Source: Octopus vulgaris
Taxonomy: Eukaryota
Assembly: GCA_951406725.2 (NCBI GenBank)
Contig: OX597835.1
Coordinates: forward strand, 3,038,001-3,102,000
Reading direction: 5' to 3'
DNA: 64,000 nt
Made by a program: the position numbers and the translations under genes. Shown here in pieces: positions 33,005-51,365 of the stretch; the first letter of the stretch is position 1; each line of letters starts with the position of its first letter. The notes below the pieces were generated by a model. That model worked only from the letters and a program-made list of their open reading frames with translations, was not told the DNA's origin and ran no database searches.

Positions 33005-33257
33005 CAATTGCAGCGTGGAAGGTGTTTGTAAGCCATTTAAGAAACACACAAAAGCCGTTCGATTCACTTCAACATTTAAATTTAATTTGTCAAAATATTT
33101 TCGTGGCAGAGATTTTTGTCAGTGAACAGGTCGCGGTCTTATAACGACGAAAATATTTTGACAAATTAAACTTAAATGGCTTACAAACACCTTCCACCTT
33201 TTTTTCGTTTCAGCACACGATCTCAGATCAAATCACTTGCTATGCAAGTACATCTCC
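33005..33257. mobile_element. 253-bp fold-back insertion carrying a hammerhead, flanked by a 15-bp direct repeat (probable TSD)
   Basis: gtaaatatcaggaaa at 32990-33004 and 33258-33272; internal inverted arms. Confidence 0.7.
33115..33165 (+). ncRNA. minimal type-I hammerhead ribozyme, G3:C8 core variant
   Basis: tttgtca-GTGAACA-g-gtcg(cggtcttataa)cgac-GAAA-atat-TT-tgacaaa; 7-bp stem I, palindromic stem III. Confidence 0.75.
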
Positions 33258-36473: not shown

Positions 36474-36517
<44 letters not shown>

Positions 36518-36613
36518 CGTTTTTGGATTTCGTTTGCAAGATTCTTTATATGAATTCGTGTATTGAAGCATATTCTGTTATCATTTTGTTTTTGTACCTT
36601 ATAATAGTCAAAA

Positions 36614-36650
36614 CTATTGAAAAGGTTGCAAGACGCAACGAAAATTTTAG
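36614..36650 (+). ncRNA. minimal type-I hammerhead ribozyme, U3:A8 core variant
   Basis: cta-TTGAAAA-g-gttgc(aagac)gcaac-GAAA-at-TT-tag. Confidence 0.6.
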
Positions 36651-36744
36651 GAAAATAAAAATAAGAAAAATGTGGAAATTTTACCGGTGAGTGTGTTATA
36701 TTATAAAGCACAAAAAGAAAATGATTCTCCCTAGACACAACAGA

Positions 36745-36803
<59 letters not shown>

Positions 36804-42845: not shown

Positions 42846-43044
42846 GACTTACATAAAGTTAATATATCTGGATTACGAACAATGTCATCAACACATAATA
42901 CTTTACAAAATCTTATAAAACCCTGAGTGGACGACGTTTTGCGAACAAAAGCCCTTCTTTTATAAAAACAGAGACCTCTCACGTAATGGTTTTGTGTGTG
43001 TGTGTGTGTGTGTGTGTAAAGAACAAGTTAAAGATATTGATCAT

Positions 43045-44426
43045 TACACATTTCTTCCTTATTGGAGTAAGTTTGACTTACAGCTGTTTCGAGCAATCAT
43101 CATAGGTACATTACTGATAGGCTTACTCCATTTGTCTTGTGATCAATTGAGAAAAGTTGAACGACCTAAGAAAATTAATGCTATTTTCGGGAGAGCCATT
43201 TCTGGTTATAACAAGACAAGCGAATACATGGAGGAGGGAAAAAGATGGAAAGATGCAAGTAGAATAGAGAGAAGAGGAAGATGAGTTACAAAGAGGCGAA
43301 GAGAATTAAGGAAAAGATAGAGGAAGGGGTCAGTTAATAGAAGCAGGGGTATTGGAAGGTCAAAATTTTGGAAAAGGGCCAGTCATAAAACATTAGTGTT
43401 TGTAGTCAGGTCGACTTTGCCTTTCATCATTTCGGGGTCACTAAACTAATTACTAGCTGAACACTGAGGTTGATGTAATCGACTGAAACCCTCCCCCAAA
43501 AGGCTTCCCTTCTGGCAAATTTGAAATCATTGTTATTTATATTTTGTAATATATCATTGGTATGTTATTAATATTTGTAATATTTTATTCGTATGATATT
43601 AATATTAATATTGGTATGTTACTAATATCTTGATGTCACCAACATCATTATTGCTTTATTATCACTATTTAGTCTGTAAATTTACTTCAATTTTTTTATT
43701 CTTAGTTTGCTTTACTGGAAAATTTAGAAATATTTGACTTTAATTCAGATTTTAATCCGTAACCCATTTATTGGTTCAAACTTTAAAACTCGTGTAATGA
43801 GGTTAATTTAAATTTATATTCGTCTATCACCGCGACTTAATCCCATTTCAACCTAACATCTCTCAATTTATCGGTAATTTATATCCTAGCTAATCCGAGC
43901 ATTCTCGACCTCTTCACCACAATGTGATTACTACTGATATTCTTTCATCTTCTAATATAATTCCCCTACTATGCTTGATAGCAACAATCACCAAATATTA
44001 AAGTCTTAGTTTGTCCATGTGTATAAATAGCCCATATCAACAGTTGGAGAACACCTAACCTAAAAACATTGCTAATATGGCAATGTATGTTTTCACCTTC
44101 CAATATCACTACTTCTATTAAGAGACCCCTTTCTCTAGTCTTTTCCTACTTCTCTTCGCCCTTTTTTAACCTGACTTCCTCTTTTCTCTATTCTACTCGT
44201 ATCTTTCCATCTTGTTCTCCCTCCCCCGTGCATTCACCTTTCCTTCAGTTCTCTGCTTGTTATAACCAGAAATGGCCCTCATGAAAGTAGCATTAATTTT
44301 CTTAGGTCGTTCAATTTTTCTCAACTGATCAATAAACAAATTGAATAAATCTATCAGTAATGTACCTATGATGACTGCTCGAAACAGCTGTAAGTCAAAC
44401 TTGCTCCTGTAAAGGAAAAATGTGTA
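43045..44426. repeat. long diverged inverted repeat (arms about 43045-43365 and 44090-44426)
   Basis: The ORF track shows the same peptide (SKFDLQLFRA.IIGTLLI..DQLRK.ERPKKINA) on opposite strands; the nucleotide arms align by eye. Confidence 0.9.
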
Positions 44427-44814
44427 TTTTAAACTTGCTTTATATATCATTCTGTGTAAAAACCAGTTTGTCTGGAGTCTATCCTCGGATTTACAATATA
44501 GAACTGTGATGAGCGAAAACCCTGCACCCTGCCCTAAGAATATCAGGAGTTCTTCACTAAGTATTATTGTTAGCTTAGTGTCCCAAGACAGGGCTTATGA
44601 AGTATTTTGCCCGGATTGATAATCCCTCACTATTTCTAACACATACACACACACACACGCACACCACACACACATATATATATGAGACTAGAGAAACACC
44701 CAACAACTGATGAAGGGTAGTTCTTTATGTTTGTTTTGTTTCAGTTTCGTTGTTCGAAAGCATAGTTCATGTTCCATGTACTCGTGCATCGTACATTTTT
44801 GTTGAGCACGTTTA

Positions 44815-45706: not shown

Positions 45707-46039
45707 ATTTATATATATATATATATATTATCGTCATAGTATAAAGTTTTTGTGTTCAACCACTAGGAATTTGGCTGAGATTATCGCAGCACACAATAAA
45801 GAGAGAATTAGGGAAAATCTCAATCTTAAAACTATAGACAAGCGTAGAATAGATAATATATATTGCGAAATTAACTCTAATGTTAATCTTTCTGAACTAA
45901 GTTTCTCTAAGTAATTACGACTCTGACAATACAGTTAGGTTATCTCCTAGCTTTAATGTTAATTATAACAATAATAATCGCACCATAATGCCTAATTCTG
46001 AGAGGAGAACTAGCAGAAATTCTTTGACTATGAGCGCCA

Positions 46040-46330
46040 AATACAAGCGAATAAATGCTTGAGTAATTGTAAAGACACAAATCTGTGTAAAAGGGAAAAC
46101 ATAGTATATCAGTGTAAGGTAATAACAGACGATCTTAAGTATTTTTACATTGTTCATCTGCTACACTTTGGAAATCTAGGATTCATAATCATTCTCATTC
46201 ATTTAATTATAACAGAAAAATTAATTCTACAAATCTTAGTAAATGGGATTTGTTGCTTCCATCAGTGGATGGCCCCGGGAAGCTATAGTGTCGTGATGGA
46301 AAGATCCGAAACGTCTACAGAATTGCTTCA
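46040..46330 (+). mobile_element. Penelope-like GIY-YIG N-terminal fragment with a decayed hammerhead remnant
   Basis: NKCLSNCKDTNLCKRENIVYQCKVITDDLKYFYI; gga-aaga-tcc-GAAAC-GTC at about 46298-46315. Confidence 0.6.
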
Positions 46331-48360: not shown

Positions 48361-49179
48361 GATATCTTGAGAACACTACCCAAGACTTGCGCATAGTCTC
48401 ATCGCCTCCGATTAACTGTTAAAACAAAAACAACGTTCGACCTTTCGTTTCTTGCGTGGGTGTAGAAATTCACTTTGTCTTCGTTTGATTAATTCACATT
48501 CAAAGTAGCTTCATATGACGAGAGACAGTATTATAACTAACTTCTATTACTTTCAATATGATATTTAGAAAAGCGAATTCCATAAGTGATTAATCACGAG
48601 ATAGTTTGATTAGTTTTAGTAGTAAATAAATGAATTATTCTCATTTAGTTTATGTCTTTCTCTGACTAATTTATATTCTGTTTCATCGTTAATTAAGCTG
48701 ATATTTAATCTTCCCTTAAAAACAAGGTTATAAAGAATATTTTCCCAGTCGAACAAGTCAAGCACTAAAATTCCTTTTCTTTCGAAACGTAAAATATCAT
48801 TATTGCTTGCAGACAGTTTTCGAAATCAGAAACAGTAGTTACTGGGAGAAACATTAAATAAATATTTGCAAACAGGTCTCTCTTCATCGAAAACCGGTGA
48901 TTACCGTACGTTGACAAGAGGCAAATACCTCGAAACTGCAGTCCGTGCGTATCGCTTGGGTTTACGAGAGAGGGATGACCTCCCTTTGCAAATACCATAA
49001 GGCACAGAAAGTGTGCCTAAAGCCAGCTGGAGACGATGATCTTCTGGGGATAAAAGCTACAGTAACACCCACCCTTAGTGGTTAGCCATACTGAGATGGC
49101 TAGTATACTTTACATAAAATTTGGTTTTCGTCTATATTCTCGTTCTTTCTGTCTTACTGATTCTTCGTCTCCTCGTCAT

Positions 49180-51113: not shown

Positions 51114-51172
<59 letters not shown>

Positions 51173-51288
51173 CGGAATGGTCATATTGCCAGTTTAGCCA
51201 ATAAAAACACACGCATTCCGAAATATAACAATATCTGTTTCAACACACGACTTCACATAAAAAAATCTTGCACAACAAATATTTAAAC

Positions 51289-51365
<77 letters not shown>

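Follow-up and report, generated by a model that had tools for sequence, protein, structure and literature searches.

The stretch of DNA analysed here, referred to throughout as the window, comprises 64,000 nt of the Octopus vulgaris assembly GCA_951406725.2 (contig OX597835.1, positions 3,038,001 to 3,102,000 of the forward strand). It is AT-rich (GC 0.27–0.42) and full of microsatellites, none of its long frames is a convincing gene, and it reads as animal non-coding DNA. Between two (TA)n runs lies a short unit composed of two pieces of one repeat family in head-to-head orientation, the second of which contains a putative minimal hammerhead ribozyme (Table 1).

Table 1 Features of the TA-flanked unit and its hammerhead motif, with a second TA-flanked unit from the same window
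Feature	Position in window	Strand	Remarks
(TA)n run, left flank	36479..36515	.	likely insertion target
Piece 1	36516..36606	-	3'-terminal 91 nt of the repeat family; ends at the left TA run
Left arm	36581..36606	+	5' part of piece 1, overlapping piece 2; not a terminal repeat
Piece 2	36606..36745	+	140 nt of the same family in opposite orientation; ends at the right TA run
Minimal type I hammerhead motif	36614..36650	+	consensus-descriptor scan, folding, and comparison with Fig. S3 of PMC4209133 (available part)
Stem I	36614-36616 / 36648-36650	+	CTA / TAG, 3 bp
Core	36617-36623	+	TTGAAAA; U3 = 36617, A8 = 36622, A9 = 36623
Extra G	36624	+	between core and stem II
Stem II	36625-36629 / 36635-36639	+	GTTGC / GCAAC; 5 Watson-Crick pairs, G10.1:C11.1, 5-nt loop
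GAAA	36640-36643	+	G12-A14 = 36640-36642
Stem III palindrome	36643-36646	+	AATT; usable dimer pairing, 4 bp
U17	36647	+	predicted cut directly 3' of 36647
Right arm with extension	36699..36745	+	region of piece 2 duplicated in piece 1
(TA)n run, right flank	36746..36799	.	
Second TA-flanked unit	51171..51289	+	related 3' end, 79% over 61 nt

The core of a minimal hammerhead reads N3-UGAN-N8-A with N3 paired to N8, and GAAA follows stem II; here the pair is U3:A8 and GAAA is in place. Stem II is expected to have at least 4 bp, a closing G10.1:C11.1 pair and one unpaired nucleotide ahead of it, and the locus has 5 bp preceded by an unpaired G, where the published consensus has H. For stems III and I the pattern is a palindromic 15.1–16.1 that permits dimer pairing, H17, and a stem I of about 3 bp or more; AATT, U17 and CTA/TAG occupy these places. 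Judged by its sequence, the motif is a complete minimal hammerhead of the already described U3:A8 type. A preliminary description of this DNA had proposed the U3:A8 core, a perfect 5-bp stem II and a 3-bp stem I, and direct inspection of the sequence finds all three where they were placed. The palindrome that it quoted is also present, but at 8 nt was drawn too long: because AAAATTTT takes in A13, A14, U17 and position 1.1, stem III of a dimer is limited to the 4 bp of AATT.

Cervera and de la Pena (2014) described minimal type I hammerheads in the pseudo-LTRs of Penelope-like elements (PLEs), defined by an extra nucleotide before stem II, G10.1:C11.1 and a palindrome at 15.2–16.2 (PMC4209133; this and the other published sources are cited from the parts available to us). 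About 1,300 U3-A8 motifs are reported there from S. mansoni, whose Cercyon PLEs carry this variant, and the 56 rows of Fig. S3 include two with U3:A8, none with G3:C8, none from a cephalopod, and a single one, from Nasonia, with G as the extra base. Two entries come close to the motif at 36614-36650. A PLE-linked C. gigas motif has a 3-bp stem I, a 5-bp stem II, a 5-nt loop, AAUU and U17, the S. mansoni(4) row has the core UUGAAAA with a 3-bp stem I and U17, and together they hold every feature seen here except G as the extra base. Common to PLE minimal hammerheads and the present motif are type I topology, an open stem I, AU-rich flanks, a 4-nt palindrome and an occurrence mostly as dispersed single motifs. 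The extra G (consensus H), the lack of a linked ORF here and the absence of this family from the 56 rows set the locus apart from that collection (PMC4209133). The U3:A8 pair is a natural covariation that is active in vitro (Perreault et al. 2011, PMC3088659). The novelty implied by the preliminary description is not supported, since the combination of U3:A8, an extra nucleotide and a palindromic stem III has been published as a Penelope-type variant (PMC4209133).

Based on the available part of PMC13282606, PLE-like repeats make up 6.83% of the O. vulgaris genome and fall into 190 families. With so many families described, the present one may already sit unnamed in a repeat library. We found no report in the literature of this family or of cephalopod U3:A8 hammerheads; Lünse et al., who reportedly studied dimer cleavage of PLE hammerhead variants, may list this or similar variants.

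The layout of the unit is apparent when its two pieces are aligned. On the minus strand, the sequence 36606-36516 carries on from 36699-36745; the two align with a 13-nt gap, piece 1 being without 13 nt (equal to 36726-36738) that are present in piece 2 and in the family. Piece 2 begins 8 nt ahead of stem I and breaks off 57 nt before the 3' end of the family; about 47 nt are common to both pieces. The inverted arms reported in the preliminary description (36581-36606 and 36699-36724) are confirmed, with 23 of 26 positions matching, and they arise because the overlapping pieces 1 and 2 belong to one family. Contigs of the family show the same relationship. In three of the four runs compared (X1, X8, X9 and X15, from organisms A, C, D and E; X8 may be an RNA run) the family joins 36579 to 36738 on opposite strands, and the loose ends behind 36579 and behind 36744 each give the sequence of the other piece. 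Contig depth is high over 36516-36579 and 36604-36745 and near absent over 36580-36603, where the summed depth, which is not a copy number, is 0–4,213 compared with about 0.1–3 million in the middle of both pieces; this gap exists because family contigs fit better at 36699-36745.

Among the 15 joints listed (of 73), at least nine have other breakpoints but again link a 3'-end piece in antisense to a piece in sense, all nine in run X1 and one also in X9. Since other copies break elsewhere, the arms are not a fixed feature of the family, and we consider them a likely by-product of insertion. The earlier picture of arms and TA flanks as a unit that loops the ribozyme out is thus not upheld, because the junction is private to this locus and the breakpoints vary among copies. 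The TA on both sides is real, as the two runs adjoin the ends of the unit, but by itself it says little because the window has 70 TA runs of at least 16 nt, and 32 of the 69 gaps between them are no longer than 237 nt. We also considered the 3–5 nt TAT/ATATA overlap between the inverted pieces and the TA runs as priming microhomology, and rejected it as too weak in AT-rich DNA.

Some details of the joints are recorded as side observations. Six of the nine listed back-to-back joints in X1 start the sense piece at 36606-36622, similar to 36606 here; in these six the antisense tail pieces are only 24–38 nt long and each joint is represented by one contig. A further X1 joint, again in one contig, departs at the predicted cut site, 36647, and jumps back by 35 nt.

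The repeat family is very abundant. Part of the stretch is contained in 23 of the 24 listed runs (five organism labels, 11 studies), and the contigs fitting at 80% likeness number 11,974 in X1, 2,121 in X8, 6,901 in X9 and 4,562 in X15. Of 32 listed family pieces, 15 span the entire motif, with examples in all four runs, and at each listed motif position the letter of the window is the majority letter in four of four runs. The motif changes at the level of 4% or more are C36634T, G36635A, C36639T and G36640A, all in CpG (3.5–21%), together with one non-CpG change, A36644G, at 8% in X15 only. Because the CpG changes hit G12 too, they would resemble neutral decay after insertion. Non-CpG variable places amount to 1 of 33 inside the motif versus 8–10 of 93 downstream, a deficit that falls short of significance (p 0.29–0.44). 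In the core, the four runs list no change of at least 4%, but their coverage of the motif's 5' side is thin. Because window and family disagree at 36611-36612, alignments often begin at 36613, and a change at U3 could for this reason be clipped and go unlisted. Neither 36618 nor 36623 is the start of any of the 32 listed pieces, and 36606 and 36613 are the places with the best support among the upstream loose ends listed. The preliminary description had proposed conservation of U3, A8 and the stems as a check on the motif. The majority letters are indeed kept in four runs, but U3 and the 5' strand of stem I are under-sampled, and no compensatory change in the stems was found among the family contigs. 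Conservation among the copies is evidence of descent and not of selection.

Contigs also inform on the ends of the family. Upstream of 36606/36613 many of them continue in common sequence (16–86 contigs per place, median 34–75 nt). Behind 36744 the loose ends are long (144 contigs in X1, 102 in X9), and their consensus decays to AT-rich sequence with an agreement of 0.47. With the sense orientation of the family taken from the hammerhead itself, the core lies about 185 nt from the TA-joined end, that is 128 nt in piece 2 plus the 57-nt tail. The end of piece 2, 57 nt short of that of piece 1, gives a hint of an optional tail.

A pattern scan of viral_contigs returned no longer copy of the family, with three loci matching the 27-nt pattern only, and no match to the second motif; scans of metagenome_contigs gave no match to either motif, and genome_contigs (prokaryote) gave none. 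The three viral loci (L001-L003, 5001-5027) share one sequence in three large viral contigs without flanking similarity to the window. It combines a U3:A8-like core and an extra G with the 5-bp stem II of the motif at 36614-36650; GAAA and a hairpin come next, but stem I has no evident partner.

Our preferred reading, to which we assign a probability of about 0.72, is that the unit consists of two overlapping back-to-back pieces of one abundant repeat between TA runs, likely the truncated 3' end of a PLE (pseudo-LTR and tail), and likely the product of two reverse transcription events primed on opposite strands of the target. Membership in the PLE superfamily is likely, and each of the expected core, stem II and stem III/I features is found in the hammerhead. 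In the proposed mechanism, a GIY-YIG endonuclease/reverse transcriptase would cut both strands of a (TA)n target. One target end would prime cDNA synthesis at the tail end of the RNA and copy about 100 nt, yielding piece 1, and the other would prime 57 nt further in and copy 140 nt through an uncleaved hammerhead, yielding piece 2. Both cDNAs would stop early and their ends would be joined at 36606, leaving the overlap that appears as arms. In the parent, which may be a PLE or its dependant, cleavage by the hammerhead after U17 would require two tandem pseudo-LTRs to form a dimer through AAUU, probably with the assistance of protein. Because piece 2 crosses the predicted cut site intact, the RNA template would have been uncut or rejoined.

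An inverted 5'-truncated layout with a microsatellite target is seen at this locus, at 51171-51289, and in at least nine of the 15 joints listed (X1). The unit at 51171-51289 has a short 5' inversion of its own with a 14-nt perfect inverted match and includes no hammerhead. Craig et al. (2021) described inverted 5'-truncated copies, optional tails of 30–40 bp and (TA)n targets in PLEs; the (TA)n-targeting clades are Hydra and Naiad, with the octopus members Hydra-1_Obim and Naiad_Obim/Ovul (PMC8557442). The (TA)n target, the 5' truncation, the inverted 5'-truncated copy and perhaps the optional tail are common to these clades and to this unit, as is a hammerhead within about 200 nt of the 3' end, and in Penelope-13_HM the inverted copy includes the hammerhead (PMC8557442). 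The hammerhead of Hydra-1_oBim also has G as its extra base, but otherwise differs from 36614-36650. Unlike the U3:A8 motif here, the hammerheads tabulated in the available part of that source are C3:G8 only; Hydra motifs have a stem III of 3–4 bp with a loop, and Naiads are without canonical hammerheads (PMC8557442). The 57-nt tail of the family, which is longer than the described 30–40 bp, counts against a PLE, as does the extra nucleotide G compared with the consensus H.

The biochemistry of a related system is consistent with this mechanism. In vitro, the protein of the anole PLE Poseidon cuts both strands of the target and extends each of them; it initiates at two internal sites and works on uncleaved RNA, while the Poseidon hammerhead cuts only with the protein present (PMC11167929). 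The 5' inversions formed by twin or dual priming in L1 are similar in that opposed pieces are primed from two strands and joined at their 5' ends; in L1, however, the event is marked by an internal deletion with poly(A) and TSD hallmarks, whereas here there is an overlap of about 47 nt and a (TA)n target (PMC2837659).

The protein-coding part of such an element was sought by a Pfam scan of 148 of the 276 low-repeat frames of at least 55 aa, all of them between 26.3 and 63.1 kb and none from the first 26 kb. Among these 148 frames, no reverse transcriptase or GIY-YIG ORF linked to the family was found; the only matches were weak and sub-cut-off, and none to a reverse transcriptase or GIY-YIG family reached E <= 0.01. 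Exact 12–14-nt motifs of the family, looked for in the PLE consensus file of PMC8557442, where line breaks can hide matches, gave a single match of one 12-nt motif and no other. The family motifs are also absent from the supplement of PMC13282606, a 5-kb file that contains no repeat library.

As no such ORF is tied to the family, the repeat could be a short non-autonomous element of about 200–300 nt, retrozyme- or SINE-like, that borrows a Penelope-like protein and whose RNA would begin a short way ahead of the hammerhead. Its mode of insertion and the way in which the arms arose would be no different from those of a truncated PLE. We judge this to be unlikely, though it deserves to be weighed. 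Along with the missing ORF, it is favoured by the very high abundance of the family and by the six of nine X1 joints shown that start at 36606-36622, which hint at a preferred 5' end; yet this cluster comes from one run, with one contig per joint and 15 of 73 joints listed, and is biased by the start of the reference, and many contigs run on upstream of 36606/36613 in common sequence. Animal retrozymes have been argued to derive from PLE pseudo-LTRs (10.64898/2026.07.22.740005). Like this family, animal non-LTR retrozymes are non-coding and high-copy, carry a type I hammerhead, and have a proposed PLE origin or PLE-driven mobility (PMC7229834; 10.64898/2026.07.22.740005). However, they form head-to-tail tandems with canonical, not minimal, hammerheads (PMC7229834), whereas here a single minimal motif lies in a head-to-head truncated pair; no tandem units were seen, and head-to-tail units with canonical hammerheads are found neither at the locus nor in the rest of the window.

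The lone copy at this locus is predicted to be nearly inactive. In folding calculations, whose model ignores core contacts, the pair probability of stem II is 0.8–1.0 in four contexts, the AAUU duplex is weak (+2.2 kcal/mol), and the dimer fold with one site reaches -3.9 kcal/mol versus -16.4 kcal/mol for the best two-strand fold. No second motif of the same family was found in the window, so that little or no cleavage would be expected of this copy. Published minimal motifs show no cleavage as monomers and low cleavage as dimers (PMC4209133).

Folding also bears on the picture drawn in the preliminary description, in which the locus makes a functional hairpin RNA with arms that expose the ribozyme or act as its gate. 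Pairing of the arms is indeed predicted, and stem II is retained in the loop (p 0.94), but the fold containing the arms has a z-score of only -1.9, 10 of 200 shuffles being as stable, and the probability of stem I, 0.16–0.49 otherwise, drops to 0.004 once the left arm is included, with no second motif for a dimer. The junction belongs to this locus alone, and the different breakpoints of other copies largely refute this picture, which we regard as very improbable.

A chance match in AT-rich repeat DNA was evaluated with two descriptors. The first, a loose descriptor fitted post hoc to accept the candidates of the window, has three matches in the window (33122, 36617 and 48911) compared with a mean of 0.007 per window in 300 local dinucleotide shuffles. 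The second was built from the published consensus with all 16 N3/N8 combinations allowed; it has two matches (36617 with U3:A8 and 33122 with G3:C8), against one match in 1000 shuffled windows and none in 20,000 shuffles of the unit alone. The preliminary description had allowed some chance of coincidence, which both shuffle controls exclude at the sequence level. The stem I of 3 bp, the weak AAUU duplex and the lack of compensatory change fit an accident, as does the result with Rfam, which gives no hammerhead match at E <= 10 on 36500-36760 (six weak matches, none of them a hammerhead) and none among the 150 of 445 matches listed for the whole window, those 150 being microsatellite-driven miRNA models except for three Pestivirus-UTR rows. 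Given the shuffles, and a motif that is a near twin of published PLE motifs in a PLE-like context, an accident is scarcely credible.

Least probable of all, to the point of being negligible, is a DNA transposon, for example a MITE, that has terminal inverted repeats and a TA target duplication and contains the motif by accident. Inverted arms and TA on both sides would suit it, but the arms lie inside the unit, at 65 nt from the left TA run, and are interrupted by the 13-nt deletion and locus-specific as the overlap of two pieces of one family. Family copies without arms are present among the contigs, and the family-wide terminal inverted repeats of MITEs and Tc1-mariner elements were not found.

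The window contains two further hammerhead motifs, both on the forward strand. At 33015-33197 a G3:C8 minimal hammerhead (core at 33122) has a 7-bp stem I, an extra G and the palindrome AATATT, and its surroundings are also laid out back-to-back, with a 27-nt perfect inverted repeat (33015-33041/33171-33197) and an inner inverted stretch. The preliminary description had treated the two elements as copies. They do have the extra G and an A/T-only palindrome in common, but blastn does not support calling one a copy of the other: the best match between them is 11 nt long and lies outside both motifs (E 0.04), and 24–27 nt over the GAAA/palindrome region match at 78–79% (E 0.14–0.5). Heterodimer pairing between these two motifs was rejected on inspection, as their palindromes have 4 and 6 nt and their stems I are unrelated. 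In the parts available, neither the 56 rows of PMC4209133 nor the table of PMC8557442 includes G3:C8, and of the window's motifs this one may therefore be the more unusual. The third motif (48905-48951, core at 48911) has U3:A8, a 6-bp stem I, a 4-bp stem II without an extra base, the 8-nt palindrome ACTGCAGT and C17. This motif is the strongest candidate for activity on the folding model, because the dimer stem III and both stems I all form in the top-scoring two-strand fold predicted for it. A three-way alignment of the hammerhead-bearing stretches left the motifs unaligned and gave no family relation.

Elsewhere in the window, broken frames at 45740-46260 (+) contain motifs resembling the linker/GIY-YIG region of Hydra-clade PLEs in the available supplement of PMC8557442. 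They have no Pfam match and are not linked to the unit; in the Atlas their first matches are unnamed eukaryotic clusters (0.95), and a GIY-YIG lead stands at 0.88 with 10% of members. Two similar non-repetitive frames without a Pfam match lie in opposite orientation about 1 kb apart (42919-43284, +, and 44193-44594, -), and are probably an inverted duplicate of another repeat.

All three hammerhead motifs of the 64-kb window, from three unrelated families, have U3:A8 or G3:C8, and none has C3:G8. A broader proposal would see in the family a short Penelope-derived element, non-autonomous and present in very high copy number in related octopus-like animals, with RNA from just upstream of a fixed U3:A8 hammerhead, in genomes that have largely replaced the C3:G8 core. 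We consider this doubtful; if true, the replacement of C3:G8 would point to lineage-wide selection for attenuated or protein-gated ribozymes.

Each feature of the motif and of the insertion is already in print, and the locus presents no new ribozyme architecture and no new kind of element, but an ordinary member of a known one. If our reading of a truncated PLE is right, one abundant U3:A8 family is added to the known minimal hammerheads of PLEs, and the unit is a compact example of how the back-to-back insertions of these elements arise. Piece 2, intact across the predicted cut site, fits the use of uncleaved RNA as a template (PMC11167929). With non-standard cores in three of three motifs of the window, standard C3:G8 descriptors would miss these motifs, and ribozyme-bearing repeats could be undercounted in this animal group.
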